Source: Geobacter sp. UBA6802
GTDB taxonomy: Bacteria; Desulfobacterota; Desulfuromonadia; Geobacterales; Pseudopelobacteraceae
Direction of reading: 5' to 3'
Length of the DNA: 8,989 bases
Assembly (NCBI GenBank): GCA_002452325.1
Contig: DKFG01000025.1
Span: 1-8,989, forward strand
The notes under the pieces were generated by a model, which worked only from the letters and a program-made list of their open reading frames with translations, ran no database searches and was not told the origin of the DNA. The position numbers and the translations under genes are program-made. This document shows, piece after piece, positions 1 to 8,989 of the stretch. Positions within the stretch are counted from its first letter, which is position 1; each line of letters begins with the position of its first letter.

Positions 1-151
1 TTTCCGCTTCAATCCGTTTCAGCATTGCCTGCATCTTGCGGACGTTTTCAGGGGTGTTTTCCAGCAGGGTCTGCTCACGACAGCGCTTTCCCTGATAGCG
101 GAAGTCAAAATACAGCTTGCCGGTTTCCTTCCGTACATTCACGTTACCCAT
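1..151 (-). CDS. int: Tyrosine (phage-type) integrase, N-terminal fragment; the gene continues beyond the left window edge
   Basis: My own minus-strand translation from ATG at 151-149 gives MGNVNVRKETGKLYFDFRYQGKRCREQTLLENTPENVRKMQAMLKRIEAE... The 'GKLYFDFRY.GKR.RE' block is typical of the arm-type DNA-binding N-terminus (DUF3596-like) of P4/CP4-57-type integrases. The start overlaps the stop of the upstream HTH gene by 8 nt (ATGGGTAA), implying an operon. This ORF is not in the supplied track because it is truncated. Confidence 0.72.
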   Translation of the reverse strand, partial: MGNVNVRKETGKLYFDFRYQGKRCREQTLLENTPENVRKMQAMLKRIEAE

Positions 152-392
152 GACAAACCCCTCCGTTCGCCATCGGTATCATCGGCAGCTGATGTGTTGA
201 GCTGCCCAGCATATCCCGCTCGATCGCTTCCCAGAGGTAAAGAATCTTTCTTCGTCCAAACGGCTTGATGTAGTGGACCCCTTCAAACAGCACCGAATCC
301 TTCAGGCAATTGAGGATATAGCGCGGTGCATAGTGCAGCCTGGCGGCCAATTCTTCAGTGGTCAGATAAGTTACCGATCCGTTTGCGTTCAT
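144..392 (-). CDS. Excisionase/AlpA-like helix-turn-helix DNA-binding protein (82 aa)
   Basis: This is ORF 144..428 trimmed to the internal ATG at 392-390 (MNANGSVTYLTTEELAARLHYAPRYILNCLK...GVHYIKPFGRRKILYLWEAIERDM). That ATG lies 5 nt after the SD GGGAGGTG (complement of 398-405). The longer start would sit inside the predicted promoter. The 'LTTEELA..L......I......G.....K.G.R.I.Y....IE' pattern resembles HTH_17/excisionase family proteins, and the gene sits directly upstream of an integrase. Confidence 0.68.
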   Translation of the reverse strand: MNANGSVTYLTTEELAARLHYAPRYILNCLKDSVLFEGVHYIKPFGRRKILYLWEAIERDMLGSSTHQLPMIPMANGGVCHG

Positions 393-423
393 AGTGACAC
401 CTCCCGTCTGTGTTGTTACATAC

Positions 424-453
424 ACCATACCAGAGTCAAAATAAACATGTCAA
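424..453 (-). promoter_or_regulatory. Putative sigma70-type promoter for the excisionase-integrase operon
   Basis: The minus strand reads TTGACA (453-448), an 18-nt spacer, then TATGGT (429-424), about 30 nt upstream of the ATG at 392. This is a sequence match only. Confidence 0.4.
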
Positions 454-464
454 GCATTATTATA

Positions 465-474
465 TCATATATGA
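465..474. promoter_or_regulatory. Perfect 10-bp palindrome TCATATATGA in the divergent xis-int / XRE control region (candidate operator)
   Basis: It is self-complementary on direct reading. It is flanked by ATGTCA (447-452) and ATGACA (471-476) half-site-like words. It lies between two divergent promoters. Confidence 0.35.
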
Positions 475-493
475 CAACAAAACAAATAACGAG

Positions 494-524
494 TTGCTAT
501 CGCTTTGCATATGATGCTATATGC
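494..524 (+). promoter_or_regulatory. Putative sigma70 promoter of the XRE gene, overlapped by inverted repeat GCATAT-N6-ATATGC (candidate autoregulatory operator)
   Basis: TTGCTA (494-499) is followed by a 17-18 nt spacer and then TGcTATATG, an extended -10-like element (515-523). The inverted repeat GCATAT (507-512) / ATATGC (519-524) overlaps the -10. The site is 32-49 nt upstream of the ATG at 556. Confidence 0.4.
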
Positions 525-555
525 GCACACAGGACATCTGACAGGGGGAGCAGCA

Positions 556-804
556 ATGATCAGGTTTTACCTGCAGGAAATGATTGCCGAGCAGAAATTC
601 AAAACGGGCAAGAAGATAACGCTTGAGGCGATCGCCAGAGATACGGGGATTAGCAAGGTCACACTTTCGAGGATCAGCAGTCAGCGGGGGTATAACACCA
701 CAACAGATAATATTGACAAGCTATGCGTCTATTTCGGCTGTTCAGTGGCACAACTCATGGAACATGTGCCTGATAACCTTGTCGGACAACAGCCAAAATC
801 ATAG
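556..804 (+). CDS. XRE/Cro-CI family helix-turn-helix transcriptional regulator (82 aa)
   Basis: This is ORF 505..804 trimmed to the ATG at 556, which lies 5 nt after the SD GGGGGAG (544-550). The sequence is MIRFYLQEMIAEQKFKTGKKITLEAIARDTGISKVTLSRISSQRGYNTTTDNIDKLCVYFGCSVAQLMEHVP. The 'ITL..IA..TGIS..TLS.I......N...DNIDKLC.YF.C....L.E' pattern is the classic HTH_3/HTH_26 small-repressor signature. Confidence 0.85.
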   Translation: MIRFYLQEMIAEQKFKTGKKITLEAIARDTGISKVTLSRISSQRGYNTTTDNIDKLCVYFGCSVAQLMEHVPDNLVGQQPKS

Positions 805-819
805 TGCACAGTTGGTAAA

Positions 820-856
820 GGGTTGCAGAATGTCACAACATGACACGCTGCAACCC
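820..856. terminator. Nested hairpin between the convergent XRE and 449-aa genes (likely bidirectional terminator)
   Basis: The outer stem GGGTTGCAG (820-828) pairs perfectly with CTGCAACCC (848-856). The inner stem is TGTCA (831-835) / TGACA (841-845) around loop CAACA. The hairpin lies between the stop at 802-804 (+) and the stop at 865-867 (-). The flanking U-tracts are weak (TTTA on the minus strand), so efficiency is uncertain. Confidence 0.5.
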
Positions 857-864
857 AAATCATG

Positions 865-2214
865 TCACAACAGCCTCATCTCCACCGGCTTGTCTGTCCC
901 CGGAGAGGTAAAGCCGATGGTCTTCCGCTGGTTATTCCACGTCATAGGCTTGCCTGTGTAGGGGCTGTAGAGTTCGGAGCCAGCAGTCGCCAGAAACGCA
1001 GGTATGGATGTCGGCGTTATCCTCTTTTCGTTTGCCAGCAGCTTCACCAGCGCCAAACGCCTGATCCCTTCCAGATCATGCACCCTGCGGGCGTAGCCGG
1101 TGTACTGCAAGCTGTAGCTCTTGACCGTTTGCGCCTCACCCAAGGGGCTGTAGATGAAGGGCAGGTCGAGTTTGCGTACCTGAATCGGATCTATTACGCC
1201 ATGTTTCTGCAGATGATCGACAAGCGCCGGGGCTGATAGGTTTGCAAGCTGACTATCATGCAGATATTGGGTATGCAGGTGGTTCATCATGGTATTGGGT
1301 TTCAGCCATGCCAGCAGCAACCAGTTTACCGGATTATATGAATTACCAGCCAGCATCCTGAAGGTAGCTGTGGTACGTTCAGCCCAGATCACTTCAGACC
1401 GCAGCACATCTACTGCTTGTAATCTGTTGGTATCGAACTGTAGCACCTGTGCCAATGTCTGTCGTTGTTCGGGTCTGATGCTTGGGTGACTGGCAAGCTC
1501 GGCAGCCAGATTTAAGCTGCTACGCAGGGCTGAAAAGGCATGGAACTTCATCATTAGGCTGGTATCGCTAGTTGCCAGGGCCAACCAAAACTCGGTTACC
1601 TGTTTCACGCCGTTTACAGCAGCGGCAAGATTCCCCTGTTCGGCCTGCTGTCCCAGGCTCATCAGATACAGCCTATGCAGCTCAAGCGTGGCAGTTGAGC
1701 TGGGCAAGGGCATCCAGATGCCAAGCTCCAGCGGTTCCTGATACTGGCGAAAGGTCAACAGAGTCCGGTAGCGGCTGAGCAACAGTTCGTTAGTCCTCAA
1801 CAACTCCGACATTTTTTGCGGATTCTGCGCCACATATTCCAACAGCTTTCCGTTCTTATCGCCTTCATGGAAGCTTGGCACGACTTCTTTCACCCTCAGG
1901 GCGGATCTTCTTTTTTCATACTCAGGCGGGTACTGGTAAAAATCGCTGAACTGCTTGTCCCGCAGCAGAGTTGTGCGATACCACTCCACCACCGCCCTAC
2001 CTTCAACAGCAGGATCGGAGGTTGCAGGAAAGTGCAGGCCGATCAGGTAGTAGTAGGCATTGTCTTGCTCTGCCACCACACCTTCAGGGCGCTGCATCAG
2101 GTTGCGGGCTGCAGTGGAAAGCGGCTGGTCATACCAGGCCAGGAAGGCCAACACGATGAGATAGCTGAAAAACAGGAACATTTTTATTTGGCGTGCAGTG
2201 ATTGCTTTTGTCAT
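865..2214 (-). CDS. Hypothetical protein, 449 aa, with an N-terminal membrane anchor or uncleaved signal and a large alpha-helical extracytoplasmic domain; family not recognised
   Basis: It is a long uninterrupted ORF. The SD GGAGGA lies 4 nt before the ATG at 2214. There is a hydrophobic segment FLFFSYLIVLAFLAW at residues ~12-27. The remainder is hydrophilic and helix-rich (many L/Q/R/E) with no catalytic motif I can name. Confidence 0.8.
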   Translation of the reverse strand: MTKAITARQIKMFLFFSYLIVLAFLAWYDQPLSTAARNLMQRPEGVVAEQDNAYYYLIGLHFPATSDPAVEGRAVVEWYRTTLLRDKQFSDFYQYPPEYEKRRSALRVKEVVPSFHEGDKNGKLLEYVAQNPQKMSELLRTNELLLSRYRTLLTFRQYQEPLELGIWMPLPSSTATLELHRLYLMSLGQQAEQGNLAAAVNGVKQVTEFWLALATSDTSLMMKFHAFSALRSSLNLAAELASHPSIRPEQRQTLAQVLQFDTNRLQAVDVLRSEVIWAERTTATFRMLAGNSYNPVNWLLLAWLKPNTMMNHLHTQYLHDSQLANLSAPALVDHLQKHGVIDPIQVRKLDLPFIYSPLGEAQTVKSYSLQYTGYARRVHDLEGIRRLALVKLLANEKRITPTSIPAFLATAGSELYSPYTGKPMTWNNQRKTIGFTSPGTDKPVEMRLL

Positions 2215-2239
2215 TTTATCCTCCGATTCACAGGAATAT

Positions 2240-2363
2240 AAAAAACGTTATGAGGAAGGCCGGATACAAGGCGCACGGAGCACAGCGACTGAGGCATAAC
2301 CTTTAGTTAGGCGAAGAAGCGAGCACCGCGCAACGCCGTAGACGGCCTCCGGAGTAGTTTTTT
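2240..2363 (-). other. About 125-nt long-range hairpin element with an A6/T6 clamp in the leader of the 449-aa gene (terminator/attenuator or unknown structured RNA)
   Basis: AAAAAAC (2240-2246) is complementary to GTTTTTT (2357-2363). Inside that pair, GGAAGGCCG (~2254-2262) pairs with CGGCCTCC (~2343-2350) with one bulged A. The ~80-nt GC-rich interior contains two related words (GGCGCACGGAGCAC / GGCGAAGAAGCGAGCAC) and small hairpins (TAAC-CTTTA-GTTA; GCCGT-AG-ACGGC). On the minus strand the element ends in ...CCGGCCTTCCTCATAACGTTTTTTAT, about 22 nt before the SD of the 449-aa gene. Confidence 0.35.
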
Positions 2364-2372
2364 AACGCTCTG

Positions 2373-2996
2373 CTAAAAGAACATCATCATCAGGTTAAGA
2401 TCAGCCAGCAGACTTTGGCGCAGGGCCAGAATAAACAGCCAGCCAAACAGAGCAATGCCGCCGCACCACACCAGGTCTGCCGCTAGGGATGGCAACAGAA
2501 AACGCCGGAGAGAAGTTATGCCCAATACCTGCATTGCAAGCCGGTTTGAAACCCACAGCAGATGAACAACCAGCAACAAGCCAACACAAATAAGAATCAA
2601 CTGCACTACACCCAATCCCCCCATGTAGTGCAAACCAAGGGTGCTTGCGGTAACCAGCAGGAAGATCAAACCGATCCCCGACATTTGCAAGGCACGCAGC
2701 ACCATGAGCTGTTTTTTTTCCTGTCTGGTTGCACCGCCAAAGCGTGAGATCGCCAGCCATTCAAGCTCTACACGCAACGAGATCAGAAAACCAAGCGGTG
2801 GTGCCAGCAGCAATGTCATGGCTAGCATAAGCGCCGGTGTTGCCAGAAAGCTGCCAGGGTTGATCATCAGGCTGGCGCTCAGCAGCAGACCGGCAAGCAG
2901 GTGTGCCAGTACACCAAAACGTTCGCCGTAGGTTGCCGTCAGGTTATGCAGGATGTTTGCAAAAGAGTATCGCGGGATGGATAGTGTTGTGGCCAT
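2373..2996 (-). CDS. Hypothetical polytopic inner-membrane protein (207 aa, ~6 hydrophobic segments); family not recognised
   Basis: This is ORF 2373..3077 trimmed to the ATG at 2996-2994 (MATTLSIPRY...), which follows the SD GGAGGA (complement of 3004-3009). The longer start would run through the upstream terminator and the conserved motif. The protein is dominated by L/V/G/A-rich transmembrane-like stretches. Confidence 0.78.
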   Translation of the reverse strand: MATTLSIPRYSFANILHNLTATYGERFGVLAHLLAGLLLSASLMINPGSFLATPALMLAMTLLLAPPLGFLISLRVELEWLAISRFGGATRQEKKQLMVLRALQMSGIGLIFLLVTASTLGLHYMGGLGVVQLILICVGLLLVVHLLWVSNRLAMQVLGITSLRRFLLPSLAADLVWCGGIALFGWLFILALRQSLLADLNLMMMFF

Positions 2997-3030
2997 GATG
3001 TCATCCTCCAAGATTAGTGGTCTTGAAGGA

Positions 3031-3042
3031 TTAGACGGACAG
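3031..3042 (-). promoter_or_regulatory. Conserved motif copy 1: cTGTCCGTCTAA (coding-strand reading), ending 34 nt upstream of the ATG at 2996
   Basis: It is an exact match to copies 2 and 4. It is intergenic, immediately downstream of the 3059-3096 terminator, and in the same orientation as the downstream gene. TCTAAT resembles a -10 hexamer and CGTC resembles ECF-type -10 cores. Confidence 0.5.
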
Positions 3043-3058
3043 ATAAGGGATTGCAGTT

Positions 3059-3096
3059 GAAAAAGAACCCCCGCCACGGCAGGTGCCGGGGCGGGG
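3059..3096 (-). terminator. Rho-independent terminator of the secreted MORN-like gene
   Basis: The minus strand reads CCCCGCCCCGGC-ACCT-GCCGTGGCGGGG, with 11 of 12 stem positions paired and a GC-rich stem, followed by GTTCTTTTTC. It starts 11 nt after the TAA stop at 3107-3109. Confidence 0.8.
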
Positions 3097-3106
3097 CGTA
3101 GTAATC

Positions 3107-4507
3107 TTATTCGCTACATATACTGTTACAGCGGCTCTGACAGCTGCTTCTAGCACTGTAGTCTTTAATGTCACTACAGCTACTCCAGCAACTTGCCTTT
3201 CGGTTACGACATTCTTTGGCATCTTTCTCACGTTCATATCTACGGTTTGATTCAAACTCGCTCTGCCTGCTGCTGGCGTCACTATCTGCCTTAATACCGA
3301 GCAAACGGTCATTTGCTTTTACTGCCCATGAACTTGACGGGAATCGCTCTACTATTGCTTCATAGATTTTTCTAGCATTGTAACTCTCGCCTTTACGCTC
3401 ATATTGTCCTGCAGCAAGATACATGCCCTGTGGATTTTTACCTCTGAGATGAGTGTTTAATGTTCGTTCTTCAACGCAGCTGCTAAAGCTTATTTTGTAG
3501 CCGTTTTTGTAATCCGATTCAGTATGTTTTTGACCATCCTTTGATTGCGCCTGCCGATCTAGCTTCAGAGCTTCTTCACAACGAAAGCTCTTAACTGACT
3601 GCTCAGCCCTTGCATAAATGGACTCTGTAGTTTTTTTAGCACGACACCCATCTGGTCCGCCTTCACAACGGTATTGTTCATCGCCACCTTCATACCATGC
3701 ATTATACATTTCATGCCCTGAACATCCAAAATAACCGCATTTTTTTAAATTTCGAGAACGAATATAACCATTTGCTTTGCCACCTACAAATTGTCCATTT
3801 AATGACTCGTAGTTTTTGGTACCTATTCCAGCGCTCTCTTGCCAGAACTTTACACCGACACCATGCGGCTCGTCATTCAAACATTGGCCACGGTAATCAG
3901 ACTTGCTACAAAAATTAGGGACAAGAGAGTGGTATTTTGAGCATTTATCTATACCTATACCTATATCAACTGTATCGTCAAACGCACCATTGAGAAAGCA
4001 GCTTAATTGAAATGGCACTCCATTTTGCTTCCAAATAATGATGCCGTTTAAAGGCTTCCCATCTCGGCATTCACCGTAGAAACTAGCTGTTTCGTTAAGT
4101 AAGGGGGATGGATTTGGCACATTTGCATCACAAGTCGCATTGCTACTTTGATACATATTAGCACTAGTCGTAGTACTGGCTACTGAAGTAATGAATGAAT
4201 CGCTACCATCTGTTTTTCGAAACATCTTACTTACCTTACGCCCACCAATATCTTCAAATTTAACACGTACTGTATCTCCAACATTAAGTGTTCCTTCTTG
4301 AAACTTGTTTTTTGTTAAACTGTCAGTAATTACAACTTCATGACTGTCACCTGTTGCGTTATCCTTAATCAATACAGTCATATCAGACGAATCCGGTGAG
4401 GCAGCTTTTGATACTACGCCACTGCGAATCAACGTGTCAGCATACACTGTTTCACCGCCAAGCAGTACCACCAGTGCTGCTGCCAATATAACCATCTTTT
4501 TAAACAT
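3107..4507 (-). CDS. Secreted cysteine-rich protein (466 aa) with degenerate MORN-like repeats and a C-terminal YbgF/BamD-like TPR motif
   Basis: The SD AAGGAG lies 7 nt before the ATG. There is a Sec signal peptide (MFKKMVILAAALVVLLGGETVYA|DT). About 20 Cys follow the signal peptide. The MORN-like units are YGECRDGKPLNG, YRGQCLNDEPHGVGV and LNGQFVGGKANGYI. GQYERKGESYNARKIYEAIVERFPSSSWAVKANDRLL resembles the 'F..I...YP.S..A..A' TPR of YbgF/BamD. The C-terminal tail is CX6CX3CX11CX3CX3C. GC content is markedly low (~40%) compared with the neighbours. Confidence 0.88.
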   Translation of the reverse strand: MFKKMVILAAALVVLLGGETVYADTLIRSGVVSKAASPDSSDMTVLIKDNATGDSHEVVITDSLTKNKFQEGTLNVGDTVRVKFEDIGGRKVSKMFRKTDGSDSFITSVASTTTSANMYQSSNATCDANVPNPSPLLNETASFYGECRDGKPLNGIIIWKQNGVPFQLSCFLNGAFDDTVDIGIGIDKCSKYHSLVPNFCSKSDYRGQCLNDEPHGVGVKFWQESAGIGTKNYESLNGQFVGGKANGYIRSRNLKKCGYFGCSGHEMYNAWYEGGDEQYRCEGGPDGCRAKKTTESIYARAEQSVKSFRCEEALKLDRQAQSKDGQKHTESDYKNGYKISFSSCVEERTLNTHLRGKNPQGMYLAAGQYERKGESYNARKIYEAIVERFPSSSWAVKANDRLLGIKADSDASSRQSEFESNRRYEREKDAKECRNRKASCWSSCSDIKDYSARSSCQSRCNSICSE

Positions 4508-4540
4508 TATTGCACTCCTTAGCTGATTATTTTCAGCAGT

Positions 4541-4569
4541 ATTTTAAATTTTTGAAATAGCCCTCACAA
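4541..4569 (-). promoter_or_regulatory. Putative sigma70 promoter of the AT-rich secreted-protein gene
   Basis: The minus strand reads TTGTGA (4569-4564), a 17-nt spacer, then TAAAAT (4546-4541), about 34 nt upstream of the ATG at 4507. A small hairpin GCTGA-N6-TCAGC (4522-4537) abuts the SD. There is no copy of the TGTCCGTCTAA motif in this intergenic region. Confidence 0.5.
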
Positions 4570-4580
4570 AGTTTCAGATG

Positions 4581-5084
4581 CTACCTCCCCAACGCATACA
4601 CCACCGTCATAACATTTGCAGCCAACATAACAGCAGTAAACGCCATAAATGCTCCGGCTGCCACACCACCCTTGCTGGTCGGATTTGCACCGGCCCTTAC
4701 TGGCAGCAGCAAAACTGCCGGGAGGGCGCCGTATATAGCACTGACAAACGACAGTGCAATGCCGGCCCCCAATTGAGCGCTATCCGAAAGATTGGCCATG
4801 GTTGCGATCATACCCGATACCATACCGATAACGCCAAACACAAAACCCAGGCTTACTGCAATATCAAAGGTTGCCAGATCAGATTCGGTAAGCCTCTGCT
4901 GACAGGCCCGCGACAACAGGCCAGGCAGATCGTTCCCCAGGCTGTACAGAATATACAGCAACACCGGCAGCAAGACAATCAGGGCTGCGGTTGGCTGCAA
5001 AAAAACACCCGCATGAATCCCCTGTAACGCTGCACCGCCCACAATACAACCAGCAAAGCCAATCCACAGTAGTATGGTTTTCAT
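4581..5084 (-). CDS. MotA/PomA/TolQ/ExbB-family proton-channel-like protein, short form (167 aa) lacking the large cytoplasmic loop
   Basis: The SD GGAGGG lies 4 nt before the ATG. The N-terminus ...GGAALQGIHAGVFLQPTAALIVL resembles MotA 'GG...G.....QP.A..IV'. The C-terminal half GVIGMVSGMIATMANLSDSAQLGAGIALSFVSAIYGALPAVLLLPV aligns by eye with the PomA/MotA channel motif GMIGTLIGL..ML.NL.DP..IG.GMAVALLTTLYGA.LA.....PI. Only ~25 residues separate TM2 from TM3, whereas flagellar MotA has ~100. Confidence 0.8.
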   Translation of the reverse strand: MKTILLWIGFAGCIVGGAALQGIHAGVFLQPTAALIVLLPVLLYILYSLGNDLPGLLSRACQQRLTESDLATFDIAVSLGFVFGVIGMVSGMIATMANLSDSAQLGAGIALSFVSAIYGALPAVLLLPVRAGANPTSKGGVAAGAFMAFTAVMLAANVMTVVYALGR

Positions 5085-5125
5085 CTATCCCTCCACATTT
5101 ATCGGCATACACCGCTTTACACTGG

Positions 5126-5137
5126 TTAGACGGACAG
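5126..5137 (-). promoter_or_regulatory. Conserved motif copy 2: cTGTCCGTCTAA, ending 41 nt upstream of the ATG at 5084 (MotA-like gene)
   Basis: It is an exact 11-mer in the 85-nt gap between the rhomboid stop (5170) and the MotA-like start. It is oriented with the downstream gene. Confidence 0.5.
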
Positions 5138-5169
5138 ATTGGTAAAACTATCTAAAAAGTTCCCACACA

Positions 5170-6714
5170 TTACTCCGGCTCCGGCACCAGGCCATAGTGG
5201 TACTCATGAGCCTCGTACTCTCGTGCCTGTTTCAGTATGTCACCAACTGTTTGCGGCTTGGGTAGCCGCTCAAACCTCATGCGGGCGCTGTCACCGAAGG
5301 CTGAAGCCGGAAACTGCTGCAGAAACCGTTGCCACTGTTCATAAGCGGCTTCCGGCAGCCCCATCTCTTCAAGGGTCTTGGCATACTGAAATTGTGCCTT
5401 TTCCTGTTGTTCGATAGTCAGTCGTTTACTATCAAGCAGGTGTTCCAGTGATCTGCTGGCCATATCCAGATCGCCATGCCGGTAGAGCAGCACGGCTGCA
5501 CGCATTTCAAACTCCAGGTCGTGGGGCCGCCGGTACACGCCGTAACATTCACGGTACACCTCCGGCAGTTCTGCAGGCGCATGCTTCAGCATCAGACCCA
5601 GCGCCCTGCGGTAATGGATCCAGCCCTGTTCGGTCGGATAGTTGAATGACTTGATGCGGGCCAGTTGCAGCCAGGCCAAATGGTTTTCCGGATTTTTACG
5701 CAGCACGGTCTGGAGCGACTTCTCGGCGCCGCTAAAGCCTCCGGCAGCGTCTGATCCGGCGGTGATAATGGTCTTGCCGCTCAGGATGCCCAGCCCCAGA
5801 TCAAGGTGGCGTTCTTCCACCCCGTCATGCTGCATCCCTTTGCGGTAGGCGATGATAATACCGGTTACAAGCCCGCCAATGTGCGCCCAATGACCGGTTG
5901 AGCTTTCAGACACGCCCAGCAACTGCCCGATCCCGTCTTGCAGGTCCAGCGCAAAGTAGAGGCCGATCAGGGCAAAGGCATTCATCCTGATCTTCATGTT
6001 AATCGGCAATATCCCCAACAGCGGCAAGGGAAACACCATCTGGCGATAGTAGCAGCGCACCAGATAGAGCCCCATCAGACCGGCTATGGCGCCGGATGCC
6101 CCCAGGCTGTGCAGGGTTTCACCAGCAAACAGACCATACATGATCAAAGATAGCAGGTTGCCGGCAACACCGGCCAACAGGTAATACTTTACAAATTGCC
6201 AGCGTGGCAGCCGCCGCTCCATGGCTGAGCCAAACACCCACAGAAAAAACATATTGCCGATCAGGTGGCCGGGCCCGGCATGCAGAAACAGGGAGGTAAA
6301 CAGACTGATCGGCACATTTAAAAGGGTGGAATCCATCGGCAACCAGATCAGATCCTGTGATGCCGCCTGCAGATCATCACTGGTCAGCAGGTAGCAGAAG
6401 CTGTTTAAGGCCAACAGACCAAAGGTAATCCAGGGGATCTCTTTACGCCGATCGGCGTCATCTGCATGGGGCATCCACCAGATGCTCAGGTTTTCTTTCA
6501 GGGTTTTGCGTATGCCCAGGCCACTGGTTGCAGAACTCAGCAGCAGATAAAAAATAAAGCCGCCGGAAAAGAGCCAGAGAAAAACAAGGCTTGAAAGCAG
6601 CTTCTGCCCGCTGAAGACCAGCAACATCAACGCCACCGATTTGGCGATGAAGAGCTGCTCGGGGTGCGCCTCGGCCCAGGCGTCAAAGCGGTTGTGGAGG
6701 GAGTCGATATCCAT
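5170..6714 (-). CDS. Rhomboid-family intramembrane serine protease with an N-terminal extra membrane hairpin and a C-terminal TPR-like domain (514 aa; GluP/YqgP-like architecture)
   Basis: The rhomboid signature motifs are HAGPGHLIGNMFFLWVFG (H..xH...N), GASGAIAGLMG (catalytic Ser207, codon 6096-6094) and HWAHIGGLVTG (catalytic His278, codon 5883-5881). The C-terminal ~200 aa are helical-repeat-like (LAWLQLARI..., AAVLLYRHGDLDMASRSLEHLL, AQFQYAKTLEEMGLPEAAYEQWQRFLQQFP). The SD is weak (GGA), but an in-frame TAA 7 codons upstream excludes a longer ORF. Confidence 0.9.
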   Translation of the reverse strand: MDIDSLHNRFDAWAEAHPEQLFIAKSVALMLLVFSGQKLLSSLVFLWLFSGGFIFYLLLSSATSGLGIRKTLKENLSIWWMPHADDADRRKEIPWITFGLLALNSFCYLLTSDDLQAASQDLIWLPMDSTLLNVPISLFTSLFLHAGPGHLIGNMFFLWVFGSAMERRLPRWQFVKYYLLAGVAGNLLSLIMYGLFAGETLHSLGASGAIAGLMGLYLVRCYYRQMVFPLPLLGILPINMKIRMNAFALIGLYFALDLQDGIGQLLGVSESSTGHWAHIGGLVTGIIIAYRKGMQHDGVEERHLDLGLGILSGKTIITAGSDAAGGFSGAEKSLQTVLRKNPENHLAWLQLARIKSFNYPTEQGWIHYRRALGLMLKHAPAELPEVYRECYGVYRRPHDLEFEMRAAVLLYRHGDLDMASRSLEHLLDSKRLTIEQQEKAQFQYAKTLEEMGLPEAAYEQWQRFLQQFPASAFGDSARMRFERLPKPQTVGDILKQAREYEAHEYHYGLVPEPE

Positions 6715-6767
6715 GAATGATCCAGTAGTTGACGGTTAGTAAGCTATACCATGTTTTTCTGTAGCGT

Positions 6768-6797
6768 ATAATCGGACGGGGTACCTGGAAACGTCAA
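6768..6797 (-). promoter_or_regulatory. Putative sigma70 promoter of the rhomboid gene; its -10-proximal part is a degenerate relative of the conserved motif
   Basis: The minus strand reads TTGACG (6797-6792), an 18-nt spacer, then GATTAT (6773-6768). The spacer end plus -10 reads CGTCCGATTAT, compared with the consensus TGTCCGTCTAAT. Confidence 0.38.
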
Positions 6798-6830
6798 GAC
6801 TCATGAAATGCAGCCCTCCATCCGGAAAAA

Positions 6831-7067
6831 CTAGTCCATCGGATCCCTGTCTGGCCTGATCAGATCATCGGTATCTCGTTTAACCGGCTCATCTTTTTTG
6901 CCGTTACTGATCACCAGCATAACTCCACCAACAGCCACAAAAGCCACCACCATGGCAATCAGGCGCGTAGCCCCCTGCAGGCCAAGCAGCGATACCCCGC
7001 CACTGGCGCAGGCTCCAGCGATCAGTATCTGCATGAAGCTCAGTTTTCCCTTTTCCGGTTCAAACAT
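6831..7067 (-). CDS. Small membrane protein (78 aa, two hydrophobic helices, acidic/basic C-terminal tail); family not recognised
   Basis: The SD GGTGGGG lies 5 nt before the ATG at 7067. The two TM-like segments are FMQILIAGACASGGVSLLGL and LIAMVVAFVAVGGVMLVI. It is preceded by motif copy 3. Coding status rests on the RBS, hydrophobicity pattern and GC-rich codon third positions only. Confidence 0.62.
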   Translation of the reverse strand: MFEPEKGKLSFMQILIAGACASGGVSLLGLQGATRLIAMVVAFVAVGGVMLVISNGKKDEPVKRDTDDLIRPDRDPMD

Positions 7068-7098
7068 GTTTACCCCACCTTGTTTTTGATATAGTTCT

Positions 7099-7110
7099 TT
7101 TGACGGACAG
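7099..7110 (-). promoter_or_regulatory. Conserved motif copy 3: cTGTCCGTCAAA (one mismatch), ending 31 nt upstream of the ATG at 7067
   Basis: It matches 10 of 11 consensus positions and is oriented with the downstream minus-strand gene. A possible -35 TTGAAA lies 16 nt upstream of TCAAAA. It forms an inverted pair with copy 4, which lies 41 nt away. Confidence 0.45.
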
Positions 7111-7150
7111 CAGAGGTAATTTCAACAAACTTTTTCATCTGCATAAATCG

Positions 7151-7162
7151 GTGTCCGTCTAA
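7151..7162 (+). promoter_or_regulatory. Conserved motif copy 4: gTGTCCGTCTAA, on the plus strand upstream of the 366-aa gene
   Basis: It is an exact 11-mer oriented with the plus-strand gene. It ends 80 nt before the mini-ORF ATG at 7243 and 91-103 nt before the candidate starts of the main ORF. Confidence 0.5.
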
Positions 7163-7253
7163 TCAATGTATGGCACAAACGTGCTGTATAAACAGTGAAT
7201 GCTGTCATGGACGTATTTCACGTTAGAAAGGACCAGAGCACCATGCAGGCCGG

Positions 7254-8354
7254 GTGTCTATGCAGATGAATCAGGAACAGAATAAAAATCCGCTGATTGT
7301 ACAAGAAGACGCAGAAGGCTTGAGCATTACGGTTCATACTGCTCCGACTGAGCCGGACTTCACCAGTATGCTGGTCTATTTTGTCGGAATTGCCATGACG
7401 CTGGCAGGTGGCGCTGTCATCGTCAACTCCAATAACTGGTTTGGCCTGCTGCCGCTTTTGACAGGGTTCAGCCTGACCATGCTCATGTATTGGTATCGCA
7501 CCATCAAAAAACAGGGGGCTGTCAACCACTACTGCGTATCAGTAGCAGGTGATACCGCAACCTTTATCCACAACAGACGTACTATGGCAGTGCTCTCCCG
7601 CTCAAAAATCGGGCGGATCTGGATAACCGAGCATCGACGCAGCGGTATGCCGGTCGGACATGACATTACTGTCTATCATGACGGTATTGAACAGCATCTG
7701 TTTACTATCAACGATGCCGTAGAAACACTGGGCAGCGGCGATCAACTGCTTGATCTGATTGTAACCTACCTGAACAGTGCACCTGCCGGAAAAGAATCAC
7801 CACAGGGCACGGCAACAGAACCGTCTGCTGCGGAAGCCGAGCCGCCTGCAGAGGCTGGCGGCACTATTCTTTCCGGCTATCGCAGTGACTATGCAACAAA
7901 CACAACACCGGCGGCACGTGACACCAGTGAACTGGCGCCGCTGAAGGTGCGTATTGGCTACTCGCTGGCAATGGCGCTGCTCCTGCTGCTGCTTGTCTTT
8001 CTGCCGTATCACCCATCAATTGCGTGGATAGTGCCGTTTTATGACGACAGTTTATGGAACTTCTTTATGATATTTGCCACCCAATGGATTATCGCCCCGC
8101 TGGCGTTTTCTATAGTTCTGAGTTTCTGCGGGGCCTGTAATTGTCGTCATGACGGCAAAGACTGGATCATGTGGCCGTTTCTGCCAATGGTCTCTGCCTG
8201 GCTCCTGCAAAGTGCCATAAACTTAGTGACAAAGCAGTTTGCTCTGGATATTCCTGATAGTGTGATTGTTGTGGCCATGGTTGCGTTGATGAGCTGGATA
8301 TTCTTCCGGGTGATCAACGGCTGTTCCTGTGGTTCGCACCCGGAACGGGGGTGA
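7254..8354 (+). CDS. Two-module membrane protein (about 362-366 aa): N-terminal TM hairpin plus a possible bacterial PH-like (DUF304-like) domain, a Pro/Ala/Glu linker, and a C-terminal 4-TM module with Cys clusters
   Basis: It is a long ORF with an ambiguous start: GTG 7254, ATG 7260 or ATG 7266. The first part is a TM pair (MLVYFVGIAMTLAGGAVIV / LLPLLTGFSLTMLMYWY) followed by ...YCVSVAGDTATFIH...LSRSKIGRIWITEH...ITVYHDG, which resembles the TM-TM-PH layout of YdbS/YdbT. The linker is APAGKESPQGTATEPSAAEAEPPAEAGG. The C-terminal hydrophobic module contains CGACNCRHDG and NGCSCGSH. Confidence 0.8.
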   Translation: MSMQMNQEQNKNPLIVQEDAEGLSITVHTAPTEPDFTSMLVYFVGIAMTLAGGAVIVNSNNWFGLLPLLTGFSLTMLMYWYRTIKKQGAVNHYCVSVAGDTATFIHNRRTMAVLSRSKIGRIWITEHRRSGMPVGHDITVYHDGIEQHLFTINDAVETLGSGDQLLDLIVTYLNSAPAGKESPQGTATEPSAAEAEPPAEAGGTILSGYRSDYATNTTPAARDTSELAPLKVRIGYSLAMALLLLLLVFLPYHPSIAWIVPFYDDSLWNFFMIFATQWIIAPLAFSIVLSFCGACNCRHDGKDWIMWPFLPMVSAWLLQSAINLVTKQFALDIPDSVIVVAMVALMSWIFFRVINGCSCGSHPERG

Positions 8355-8391
8355 ACAAGGACGTTTTATCCGTAAAATTTGTTGTACAGGC

Positions 8392-8420
8392 TTGATGACC
8401 TGGCGGAACCAGGCTATAGA
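8392..8420 (+). promoter_or_regulatory. Putative sigma70 promoter of the DUF4190-like gene
   Basis: TTGATG (8392-8397) is followed by a 17-nt spacer and TATAGA(AT) (8415-8420). The spacer contains the hairpin CCTGG-CGGAA-CCAGG (8399-8413). The SD GGTAGGAG is at 8425-8432 and the ATG at 8442. Confidence 0.42.
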
Positions 8421-8441
8421 ATCCGGTAGGAGATTGAATCA

Positions 8442-8681
8442 ATGAATCAATCACAACTTGATAGCATCTTGAAATGGGGGATTATCTTTTCCCTCTTCTG
8501 GTTGGCCGGTATTGGGTCGCTTGTGGCGGTTATACTGGGGCTTAAGGCACGCAAGGCGATTAGAGCATCAGATGGTAAACTTGTCGGTTCTGGCAGGGTG
8601 CGTTGGTGCCTGATCGTTGGTGGGTTGGGGCTGGCACTTTGGGTGCCGATTGTGGTTATTGGGGTGGTGAATCAGTTGTAG
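8442..8681 (+). CDS. Small DUF4190-like membrane protein (79 aa)
   Basis: It has two TM helices separated by a basic loop (GIIFSLFWLAGIGSLVAVILGLKARKAIRASDGKLVGSGRVRWCLIVGGLGLALWVPIVVIGV). This matches the 'hydrophobic-GL.AR..I......G.G.....I.GG.G' layout remembered for DUF4190 proteins. The SD is good. Confidence 0.72.
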   Translation: MNQSQLDSILKWGIIFSLFWLAGIGSLVAVILGLKARKAIRASDGKLVGSGRVRWCLIVGGLGLALWVPIVVIGVVNQL

Positions 8682-8690
8682 GGCGAGTAT

Positions 8691-8702
8691 TTGTCCGGCT
8701 AA
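8691..8702 (+). promoter_or_regulatory. Conserved motif copy 5: tTGTCCGGCTAA (one mismatch), ending 35 nt upstream of the ATG at 8738
   Basis: It matches 10 of 11 consensus positions and is oriented with the downstream plus-strand gene. It overlaps a sigma70-like arrangement of TTGTAG (8676-8681), an 18-nt spacer and TAATAT (8700-8705). Confidence 0.45.
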
Positions 8703-8737
8703 TATTTGGATACAATTCAACAGAGGAGGGAAAACGA

Positions 8738-8989
8738 ATGATGATGAAACGAATTGTTGCCGCACTGCTGCTTATCATGGGCTGTTTGCTGGTCGGCACG
8801 CCGGGTCCGGTCGAGGCTGCCTCTAGCAAACAGACGGCCTCTGACAAAAACGCACTATTTCCCTATGAGGTCGACGGCAAATACGGCTATATCAACAAAC
8901 AGGGCCAGATGGTGATGGAACCGCAGTTTGATAATGCATTTAGTTTTTCCGACGGCCTGGCCCTTATCAAGCAAGGTGGCAAATACGGC
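8738..8989 (+). CDS. Secreted WG-repeat (KWG-type beta-propeller-like repeat) protein, N-terminal fragment; continues past the right window edge
   Basis: My own translation from the ATG at 8738, which follows the SD GAGGAGGG at 8723-8730, gives MMMKRIVAALLLIMGCLLVGTPGPVEAASSKQTASDKNALFPYEVDGKYGYINKQGQMVMEPQFDNAFSFSDGLALIKQGGKYG. There is a signal peptide (VEA|AS). 'GKYGYINKQGQ.V.EPQFD.A..FS.GLA.IK..GKYG' is the WG_beta_rep consensus. The frame is open to the window end. This ORF is not in the supplied track because it is truncated. Confidence 0.85.
   Translation, partial: MMMKRIVAALLLIMGCLLVGTPGPVEAASSKQTASDKNALFPYEVDGKYGYINKQGQMVMEPQFDNAFSFSDGLALIKQGGKYG

Follow-up and report, generated by a model that had tools for sequence, protein, structure and literature searches.

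Canonical extracytoplasmic function (ECF, or group 4) sigma factors consist of sigma2 and sigma4 only and span approximately 170-200 amino acids (aa). Group 3 sigma factors served by a dedicated anti-sigma factor are exemplified by FliA/sigma28 and FlgM, with a promoter -10 element of GCCGATAA and a -35 spacing of TAAA-N15. Promoters that function independently of a -35 element are known as well, and include the sigma-70 extended -10 promoters (TGn-TATAAT) and the late promoters of phage T4 (TATAAATA), which are read by gp55. Here we describe an 8,989-nucleotide (nt) stretch of DNA from Geobacter sp. UBA6802 (contig DKFG01000025.1, positions 1 to 8,989; hereafter "the window"), in which the 11-mer TGTCCGTCTAA recurs upstream of genes for envelope proteins. 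The sequence comparisons presented below make it probable that this word is a compact, extended -10-like promoter of an atypical sigma factor encoded within the same genomic island, and that it defines a local regulon of approximately 25-30 kb.

Two described systems offer direct parallels. In Escherichia coli, rseA P3 is a sigmaE-dependent promoter (PMC8595263) and parallels the placement of the motif before an anti-sigma gene. In addition, ECF-type sigma genes situated beside caspase systems have been proposed to regulate "a multiplicity of genes," with no promoter motif or regulon given (Kaur et al., 2021; PMC8195603). Searches of the literature found no paper on the present word, on the regulon of this sigma factor, on Geobacter ECF promoters or on transcription starts in Trichlorobacter lovleyi.

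The rhomboid protein of the window is 85% identical to a protein of Trichlorobacter (formerly Geobacter) lovleyi, and the source is, to judge from sequence, a T. lovleyi-like bacterium of the Geobacterales. The motif copies in the window, at the positions and on the strands originally predicted, are as follows:

3031-3041, minus strand: copy 1, exact, ATCTGTCCGTCTAATC in extended form (3029-3044); proposed to drive the 207-aa membrane gene together with the 449-aa gene that follows
5126-5136, minus strand: copy 2, exact, ATCTGTCCGTCTAACC in extended form (5124-5139); proposed to drive the 167-aa MotA/ExbB-like gene
7099-7109, minus strand: copy 3, variant TGTCCGTCAAA, one mismatch; proposed promoter of the 78-aa membrane gene
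7152-7162, plus strand: copy 4, exact, with a leader of 91-97 nt; proposed promoter of an operon comprising the 366-aa, DUF4190 and possibly WG-repeat genes
8692-8702, plus strand: copy 5, degenerate TGTCCGGCTAA, one mismatch, before the WG-repeat gene

When up to two mismatches are allowed, the window contains seven matches, as compared to a mean of 1.69 in dinucleotide-preserving shuffles (n = 200), none of which reached seven, confirming that the copies exceed chance expectation. The two additional matches (3792 and 3850), each with two mismatches, fall within the 466-aa gene and look like chance occurrences. All five listed copies are intergenic and point at the adjacent gene, and the gaps to the start codon are 34 nt (207-aa gene), 41 nt (MotA-like gene), 31 nt (78-aa gene), 91 nt (366-aa gene) and 35 nt (WG-repeat gene), in agreement with the predicted 31-41 nt for four copies and a longer leader for the 366-aa gene. 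Sequence common to the copies is only 13-19 nt long, and the copies are therefore not pieces of a longer repeat.

The same element was followed through a comparison set composed of the window, the orthologous loci of four relatives and one further locus, L164. The relatives are a genome assembly whose proteins are labelled T. lovleyi by NCBI (L083), a scaffold out of a metagenome assembly (L085), T. lovleyi CP058409.1, in which identity of the rhomboid protein is only 48% (L087), and a single Logan contig (L088/L162). The window sequence is also present on two metagenome contigs of approximately 9 kb each, and L164 and L166 derive from the same two samples as these contigs. Because the WG-repeat gene that breaks off at the end of the window resumes with its 3' part at the start of L164, and because the gene order agrees, L164 continues the window. 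The comparison set contains 32 distinct sites with at most one mismatch, and all 32 are intergenic and in sense orientation to the next gene, extending to every relative what had been predicted for the window. Most sites end 25-45 nt 5' of the ATG (full range 25-134 nt). The 11-mer is unchanged while its flanks diverge, even between loci with rhomboid proteins only 48% identical, and the wider consensus reads aTC-TGTCCGTCTAA-yC. Exact TGTCCGTCTAA is absent from 1.27 Mb of unrelated loci, and no motif was found in the flanking 8-10 kb of L083, L085 or L162.

Individual copies are conserved at orthologous positions. Specifically, copy 1 is exactly kept before the orthologous 208-aa gene in L083, L085, L087 and L088, copy 2 is kept before the MotA-like orthologues of L085, L087 and L088, and the AAA variant seen at copy 3 also occurs before the orthologue in L088/L162, as well as at the sigma/anti-sigma junction of the more distant loci L167 and L170. 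On sequence grounds copies 1-4 look functional. The fifth copy does not share the equal standing that it was first given: its mismatch sits inside the core TGTCCGTC, which is kept across the sigma family described below, and in L085/L086 the otherwise near-identical spacer reads TGTCCACCTAA, so that copy 5 is probably a weak or decaying site. The WG-repeat gene may instead be read through from copy 4.

Approximately one motif is found per transcription unit. In L085, for example, six genes form a compact operon behind one motif (S41, Ank, Ank, 364 aa, DUF4190, WG), and the 364-aa gene within it lacks a motif of its own while its 366-aa orthologue in the window has one. The genes served are unrelated to each other and include those for the 207/208-aa membrane protein (followed by a 448-aa protein), MotA-like, PcfJ-like and S41/PDZ peptidase proteins, WG-repeat, MORN and ankyrin/PQQ proteins, and proteins of 78, 150, 186, 366 and 398 aa. 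Three back-to-back pairs, namely 7099(-)/7152(+) in the window (42 nt apart) and 4779/4829 in L088 and 9266/9317 in L162 (39-40 nt apart), each share one central A/T tract, and the fixed spacing of 39-42 nt points to a constraint on DNA geometry. At least nine sites are spread across approximately 25 kb in the window organism. Together these data describe an asymmetric, co-oriented element at a constrained distance from the start codon and present once per transcription unit, as is characteristic of alternative-sigma promoters.

A candidate reader of this promoter is encoded in the island itself. Reading of the unannotated proteins of L083 revealed a 295-aa protein bearing signatures of sigma regions 2 and 4, named "sigma-70 family RNA polymerase sigma factor" by NCBI:

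L083 5664-6551: sigma-70-family protein, 295 aa; TIGR02937 match of 44-50 bits (cut-off 42.9) and a Sigma70_r4 match

Matches to this protein in the PDB are to sigma region 4, and all top Foldseek PDB matches of its AlphaFold2 model (pLDDT, the predicted local distance difference test, 69) are sigma factors, specifically the three-domain sigmas SigB, sigmaS and sigmaA. The TIGR02937 match extends over residues 89-283 against 124 model positions, implying approximately 70 extra residues between sigma2 and sigma4, and the same AlphaFold2 model places extra helices at residues 124-177. An N-terminal extension of approximately 85 residues carries an invariant cysteine, and sigma4 is of the "RLRFPLDE" type, as in sigmas of groups 1-3. 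Judged by these sequence features, the protein is probably not a canonical ECF sigma factor. The product of the gene that follows, 230 aa long, combines an H-x3-C-x2-C zinc finger and a zf-HC2 match with a transmembrane segment, and is the predicted anti-sigma factor. A suggestion that the motif might accompany a particular ECF sigma/anti-sigma pair was thus borne out in that a dedicated pair exists, and failed in so far as the 295-aa sigma is probably not of the canonical ECF type.

The sigma and zf-HC2 pair is present in L083, L162/L163 and L164-L166, and the layout is that of an autoregulated system, with the sigma gene in the same locus as the motif and the motif within the sigma/anti-sigma operon. 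Specifically, L083, L162 and L164 each have a motif in the 42 nt that separate the sigma gene from the anti-sigma gene, and another precedes the operon of the 186-aa and sigma genes (L083 9919; L162 9317). In L162 the order is 78 aa / 398 aa, PcfJ-like, 171 aa, 150 aa / Ank/PQQ (minus strand) / 186 aa, sigma, anti-sigma, with exact motifs before the Ank/PQQ gene, the 186-aa and sigma operon and the anti-sigma gene, and with no motif in the next 10 kb past the anti-sigma gene. In L164 the PcfJ-like (motif), 150-aa (motif), Laminin_G_3, CsgG-like and Ank/PQQ (motif with one mismatch) genes are followed by the sigma gene, the motif-preceded anti-sigma gene and then a WD40-caspase gene. By this arrangement the sigma gene of the window organism lies approximately 11-12 kb to the right of the window. 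In T. lovleyi CP058409.1, synteny with L162 would place the sigma gene next to L087. The sigma gene also has its own candidate promoter, which is sigma-70-like (TCTGTATACT).

Further observations concern the surroundings of this pair. The product of the 186-aa first gene of the sigma operon (L083 9325-9885; L162 9354-9914) has a double CxxC zinc ribbon at its N-terminus and several transmembrane segments behind it, and could be a second membrane sensor or a co-anti-sigma factor. L164 lacks this gene, and its sigma and Ank/PQQ genes face one another directly. In four genera, genes for giant WD40 or Peptidase_C14 (caspase-like) proteins recur downstream of the sigma/anti-sigma pair at a distance of 0-9 kb (L164 11587-15354; L167 15491-18733; L168 18923 to the locus end; L170 19774 to the locus end), and the matching position of L162 is occupied by genes for an FtsH-like AAA+/M41 protease, an FHA protein, a PP2C phosphatase and a Ser/Thr kinase. 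A scan with the PADLOC defence models returned only two weak matches (caspase and HEAT/ARM repeat; E ~6e-4), both to one 1255-aa protein. Two other candidate regulators were rejected: the gene for an XRE-type helix-turn-helix (HTH) protein at the left end of the window is absent from L085 and L087, and the PcfJ-like 615-aa protein has neither a DNA-binding or sigma signature nor a PDB relative and is missing from distant loci that keep the motif.

A profile of the sigma family recovered 85 clusters (50% identity) at E <= 1e-30 and 1,791 looser relatives at E <= 1e-10, with members in the Geobacterales and in at least one Acidobacteriota genome. Distant loci were chosen from among the sigma homologues, so that presence of the sigma gene was given and presence of the motif was the test. 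In L167 (sigma 51% identical), TGTCCGTCAAA directly follows the sigma stop codon. In L170 from Geobacter hydrogenophilus (47%), aatcTGTCCGTCAAA precedes an uncalled zf-HC2 gene and exact TGTCCGTCTAA precedes a gene 2.8 kb away. In L168 from Citrifermentans bremense (35%), TGTCCGTCACA stands behind the sigma gene and TGTCCGTCTCA lies before an SLH-domain gene. Finally, in L171, a metagenome-assembled genome of the Acidobacteriota (29%), TGTCCGAC, which contains the core with one mismatch, is found 45 nt before the gene after sigma. Motif and sigma family thus occur together across lineages, and the rhomboid loci of other Geobacterales have neither the motif nor a detectable ECF-type sigma gene. 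The part conserved family-wide is TGTCCGTC-nn-A, with TGTCCGTC found after the sigma gene in L167, L168 and L170, and the 3' part varies in distant genomes (TCACA, TCTCA, TCAAA). It is consequently TGTCCGTC, rather than the TCTAA originally put forward as a -10, that marks the family.

Taken together, conservation across species and the presence of a sigma/anti-sigma pair within the island support the proposal of a shared promoter or operator defining a local regulon, and of the three options first offered for the element the recognition site of an unusual sigma factor is the best fit. From co-occurrence and the autoregulatory layout we infer that the island sigma factor binds the motif, and the following sequence of events can be envisaged. 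The sigma gene would be expressed at a basal level from its own sigma-70-like promoter, and its product would be held inactive at the membrane by the anti-sigma factor until an envelope signal brought about its release, possibly with the involvement of a protease encoded in the island (rhomboid, S41/PDZ or caspase-WD40). The freed sigma factor would direct RNA polymerase to every copy of the motif, turning on approximately 9-12 transcription units for membrane, secreted and repeat-domain proteins over approximately 25-30 kb. Because the anti-sigma gene would also be induced, negative feedback would result, and in some genomes induction of the 186-aa and sigma operon would add positive feedback. 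In this scheme the element would act like an extended -10, with no base-specific -35 at a fixed distance.

The immediate surroundings of the motif bear on where transcription might start. The relevant features of the window are:

3060-3096, minus strand: intrinsic terminator of the 466-aa gene, CCCCGCC...GGCGGGG followed by TTCTTTTT
5154-5164, minus strand: T tract GGGAACTTTTT, ending 17 nt upstream of copy 2; candidate -35-zone or UP-like element
7127-7136, between the two strands' copies: central A/T tract AAACTTTTTC, common to the back-to-back pair 7099(-)/7152(+)
3004-3030, minus strand: inverted repeat TCCTTCAAG...CTTGGAGGA, directly after copy 1 and including the Shine-Dalgarno sequence of the 207-aa gene

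At several sites a strong intrinsic terminator precedes the motif by 14-20 nt, and between terminator and start codon the motif is the sole conserved feature. A new transcript would have to start at those sites, since the upstream terminator leaves no room for another promoter. In the window, the terminator at 3060-3096 ends 18 nt before copy 1, and a terminator plus promoter module of approximately 65 nt recurs before the 208-aa and PcfJ-like genes (L085, L087, L088 and L164). Further upstream, the only recurrent feature is an A/T tract 16-18 nt before TGTCC: runs of at least four T ending 14-20 nt upstream of TGTCC are found at 16/32 sites and an A or T run in the same zone at 19/32, and the tract is also seen in L167 and L168. 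The remark in the original prediction that AACTTTTT-like words lie 16-18 nt upstream is therefore probably relevant. A co-conserved -35, which had been suggested as an object of search, was looked for in the related loci, and none occurs at a fixed spacing.

Two registers are possible for the element. In one, the A/T tract would be followed after approximately 17 nt by TGTCCG as the -10, with a start near TAA, an arrangement in keeping with the family-wide core and with the hairpins that start directly behind TAA. In the other, TG would be the extended -10 dinucleotide and CCGTCT or CGTCTA the -10, with a start 6-8 nt after TAA, which fits the purines at the predicted start and the C at the "-5" position (cf. 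PMC6411747). As for the hairpins, the inverted repeat at 3004-3030 has a predicted dG of -12.3 kcal/mol (z = -3.75) and may, if transcription starts at TAA, be a 5'-terminal hairpin sequestering the Shine-Dalgarno sequence. Hairpins starting exactly after TAA and pairing with the Shine-Dalgarno sequence are found in 5 of approximately 12 leader families (207/208-aa, S41, PcfJ-like, 186-aa and the MotA-like gene of L087) and are absent from the rest; in L085 they lie at approximately 9875-9905 (minus strand) and 1440-1475 (minus strand).

Several points weigh against assigning the motif to the island sigma factor. Firstly, the link between the two is one of co-occurrence only, the sigma gene lies outside the window, and L083 has only three sites, with its sigma gene 3.4 kb downstream of the motif that heads the operon. 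Secondly, ECF-type sigmas are normally strict on -35 and spacer (PMC6411747), and no peak of AAC at 16-17 nt from CGTC, the canonical ECF arrangement of a -35 upstream of a CGT-type -10, is present in the Trichlorobacter sites, at which the distances scatter over 4-58 nt. Furthermore, the A/T tract occurs at only about half of the sites and is in some of them a mere terminator tail, invariance over 11 nt exceeds that of a typical -10, either TGTCCG or CGTCTA could serve as the -10, and the inverted repeats after TAA that involve the Shine-Dalgarno sequence would make sense only if transcription started at or before TAA.

The four alternatives to an island sigma promoter together hold a clearly minor share of the probability. 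Unlikely, in our view, is a transcription-factor operator that overlaps the -10 and start region of ordinary promoters and co-regulates the island. With 11-14 invariant positions the motif is longer than most -10 elements, it has no fixed -35, and A/T-rich and TTGnnn-like words do occur upstream at variable distances, all of which an operator would accommodate; most operators, however, are palindromes or repeats, and the present site is strictly asymmetric and orientation-locked, as was recognized from the outset, with GTC-C-GTC its only repeat and with flanks that are not conserved. Moreover, no usable sigma-70 -10 (TAnnnT with A at -11) accompanies the motif, the sigma factor is the only DNA-binding regulator conserved in the islands, and the motif tracks the sigma gene across phyla. 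Attempts to fit sigma32-, sigma28-, sigma54- and sigma-70-type promoters by eye and by distance counts also gave no match. Quite unlikely is a -10 for a conventional, RpoE-like ECF sigma encoded elsewhere in the genome. The 3' half of the motif, CGTCTAA, is a classical alternative-sigma -10, TCTAA likewise matches classical ECF -10 elements, sigmaE promoters of Streptomyces coelicolor end in CGTCT (PMC6767563), and an identical 16-mer occurs in the TGTAAC-N16-CGTCTAA promoters of three ECF sigma genes of other bacteria (described below). That resemblance is set against the missing AAC -35, the confinement of sites to the sigma-carrying island (with none in the flanking 8-10 kb of L083, L085 or L162), the absence of an ECF gene from every Trichlorobacter locus compared, and the distant genomes, which keep TGTCCGTC, and not CGTCTAA, beside the 295-aa sigma.

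The remaining two alternatives give the motif no part in transcription initiation. That it is an element of the mRNA 5' leader, at which a protein or small RNA could bind or processing could occur, controlling translation together with the hairpin, would explain why it always lies on the sense strand and why, in the leader families named above, a hairpin (z down to -3.75) pairs with the Shine-Dalgarno sequence exactly after TAA. We consider this very unlikely, as terminators 14-20 nt upstream leave no promoter by which the motif could be transcribed, fewer than half of the leaders have a hairpin and no compensatory changes are seen, the motif stands anywhere from 25 to 134 nt before the ATG, and the back-to-back pairs with their central A/T tract at 39-42 nt reflect geometry of the DNA. 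A sensitive Rfam scan in E-value mode gave 0 matches, and this result, together with the inconsistent leader hairpins, led to rejection of an RNA element. Most improbable of all is a dispersed repeat or recombination site, be it similar to repetitive extragenic palindromic (REP) sequences or miniature inverted-repeat transposable elements (MITEs) or a cassette junction, with no role in expression. The module of approximately 65 nt found before two unrelated genes, the variation among strains of gene content between motifs, and a 2.2-kb insertion in L088 that is flanked by ATCTGTCCGTCTAACCATGCAG would all suit such a site, yet most copies have only 11-16 nt in common (at most 19 nt), no terminal inverted repeats are present, the bias of strand and position relative to genes is absolute (32/32 sites of the comparison set), and the motif is kept at orthologous positions between species with 48% identical proteins. 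An island sigma promoter therefore continues to be the reading we favor.

The 16-mer ATCTGTCCGTCTAAYC followed by GGAG was used to scan a metagenome collection free of Trichlorobacter contigs, yielding 59 loci. Three of these (L105 1380, L127 98 and L146 2283, on contigs of 37-55% GC) are ECF sigma genes of approximately 160 aa behind TGTAAC-N16-CGTCTAA, with spacer and -10 region identical to ATCTGTCCGTCTAAYC, and these ECF promoters are canonical and probably autoregulated. Approximately 40 of the 59 (L104, L107, L111, L119, L120 and some 35 more) were set aside as a coding coincidence in one abundant GC-rich (62-64%) lineage, in which the 16-mer encodes the C-terminus ...KYLSV plus stop, 27 nt upstream of a 409-aa gene (MPETLIKVDLTK...) that we take, from its sequence, to encode a formamidase or acetamidase. 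As this case illustrates, 16-nt matches in large collections can be one conserved gene. A possible phage link was likewise rejected: a scan of viral contigs for ATCTGTCCGTCTAAYC gave 14 matches, all coding or chance, 8 of which represent one conserved gene on contigs of approximately 260-270 kb.

The genes of the window fall into those preceded by the motif, those presumably co-transcribed with them and those under separate control. Pfam searches confirmed the MotA-like, rhomboid, DUF4190 and WG-repeat labels first given to four of them (MotA_ExbB, Rhomboid+TPR, DUF4190 and WG repeat):

2373-2996, minus strand: 207-aa multi-pass membrane protein of no known family; regulon member
865-2214, minus strand: 449-aa protein with an N-terminal transmembrane segment, of no known family; always behind the 207/208-aa gene
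4581-5084, minus strand: 167-aa MotA/ExbB-like membrane protein (PF01618, E = 1.7e-8); regulon member
6831-7067, minus strand: 78-aa membrane protein; regulon member
7254-8354, plus strand: 366-aa membrane protein; regulon member
8442-8681, plus strand: 79-aa DUF4190 membrane protein, without a motif of its own
8738-8989, plus strand: WG-repeat protein gene, 5' part, with the 3' part at the start of L164
5170-6714, minus strand: Rhomboid+TPR protease gene, without the motif
3107-4507, minus strand: AT-rich (40-42% GC) gene, without the motif, for a secreted protein of 466 aa that is Cys-rich at its C-terminus and matches TPR weakly

As predicted, the 466-aa, DUF4190 and 449-aa genes lack the motif. 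The 449-aa gene is presumably co-transcribed with the 207/208-aa gene, and the operon layout of L085 suggests that the DUF4190 gene is probably co-transcribed with the 366-aa gene. The 466-aa gene, which sits between two motif-driven units at a position occupied by a 426-aa gene in L088, has a sigma-70-like candidate promoter of its own (TTGTGA-N17-TAAAAT at 4541-4569) and looks like a separately acquired insertion. The degenerate version of the motif once proposed for the rhomboid gene, CGTCCGATTAT, is not a copy of the motif at all; rather, it is part of a different conserved block at 6742-6771 (minus strand; TTATACGCTACAGAAAAACATGGTATAGCT, ...CATGGTATAGCT), which across loci reads TTATAC(G/A)CTACA(G/A)AAAAACATG(G/C)TATAGCT (L085/L088 approximately 9935-9965, plus strand) and resembles a sigma-70 promoter that has an extended -10. 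Expression of the rhomboid gene would accordingly not be under motif control and would be independent of the surrounding regulon. The candidate promoters of both the rhomboid and sigma genes are conserved in related loci.

The island varies in gene cargo between motifs from strain to strain, and toxin-antitoxin pairs, insertion sequence (IS) fragments and an integrase are found inside or beside it. At the left end of the window (1-871) lie the XRE-type HTH gene (623-871, plus strand) and a 94-aa open reading frame (144-428, minus strand), and the matching position is occupied by an integrase and a TraI_2/HD gene in L085 and by a radical-SAM gene in L087. The 449-aa gene appears to mark the edge of the island, beside a spot of mobile-element integration. 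In L088, the 22-mer ATCTGTCCGTCTAACCATGCAG, consisting of the promoter and the beginning of the MotA-like leader, is present at 11580-11601 and 13787-13808, on both sides of a 2.2-kb insertion that contains an ISL3 transposase fragment and a MORN-repeat gene. This case suggests that cargo genes are shuffled by short-homology recombination or duplication at the motif.

If the assignment of the motif to the island sigma factor is correct, it would give a sigma family without a studied member its target promoter and a concrete regulon, add a promoter architecture outside the strict -35/spacer/-10 rule that ECF-type sigmas follow, and offer a handle on a hypervariable island (rhomboid, MotA-like, S41, WG, leucine-rich repeat, ankyrin, MORN, PcfJ-like and caspase-WD40) in Trichlorobacter lovleyi, an organism relevant to bioremediation. 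Synthetic biology, too, would find an attractive orthogonal sigma/promoter pair in such a compact, apparently self-sufficient element of 14-16 nt. A bolder generalization, which we offer tentatively and regard as doubtful, is that an uncharacterised class of the sigma-70 family (approximately 290-300 aa, with a Cys-containing N-terminal extension, with additional helices inserted between sigma2 and sigma4, and controlled, as ECF sigmas are, by a membrane zinc-finger anti-sigma factor) might read a single 11-14-nt element, TGTCCGTC-nn-A, without a sequence-specific -35. Were this true, the compact promoter would be a portable "plug" by which newly acquired genes could join the regulon, explaining the turnover of cargo between strains, in which short-homology recombination at the motif may also play a part, the L088 duplication being an example, and the rhomboid or caspase-WD40 protein could be the protease that frees sigma from anti-sigma.

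In comparison to known systems, an alternative-sigma promoter is a familiar category, whereas this sigma family, the -35-less element and the hypervariable cargo island are uncharacterised. The ECF sigma/anti-sigma regulons (E. coli sigmaE-RseA, Bacillus subtilis sigmaW/sigmaX and S. coelicolor sigmaE) are alike in the succession of sigma and membrane zf-HC2-type anti-sigma genes, in a target promoter on the sigma factor's own operon and the anti-sigma gene, in a regulon of envelope proteins and in a -10 containing CGTC/TCTAA. The present system differs from them in the length of its sigma factor (295 aa, with an N-terminal extension of approximately 85 aa and approximately 70 extra residues between sigma2 and sigma4), in a sigma4 that resembles those of group 1-3 sigmas, in the lack of an AAC -35 at 16-17 nt and the additional invariant TGTC before CGTC, and in the separate sigma-70-like promoter of the sigma gene. 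Group 3 sigmas share the size class of 250-300 aa and a long -10 containing CCG...TAA, and the best structural matches of the island sigma are SigB, sigmaS and sigmaA; in contrast to them, the island sigma matches only the TIGR02937 superfamily and no family-specific model, its anti-sigma factor is a membrane zf-HC2 protein, and the -35 and spacing rules of sigma28 are absent. As in the systems of Kaur et al. (2021), a WD40-caspase (Peptidase_C14) giant follows the sigma/anti-sigma pair directly in L164 and within approximately 9 kb in L167, L168 and L170, although the Trichlorobacter regulon consists mostly of membrane and repeat proteins and not of the caspase gene, and the sigma families are likened by gene neighbourhood. 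Lastly, the motif is unrelated to TATAAT and is longer (11-14 nt) than the corresponding elements of extended -10 and T4 late promoters, yet, as in those promoters, one contiguous element near -10 appears to carry nearly all of the specificity, beginning here with TG and preceded by sequence that is merely A/T-rich.

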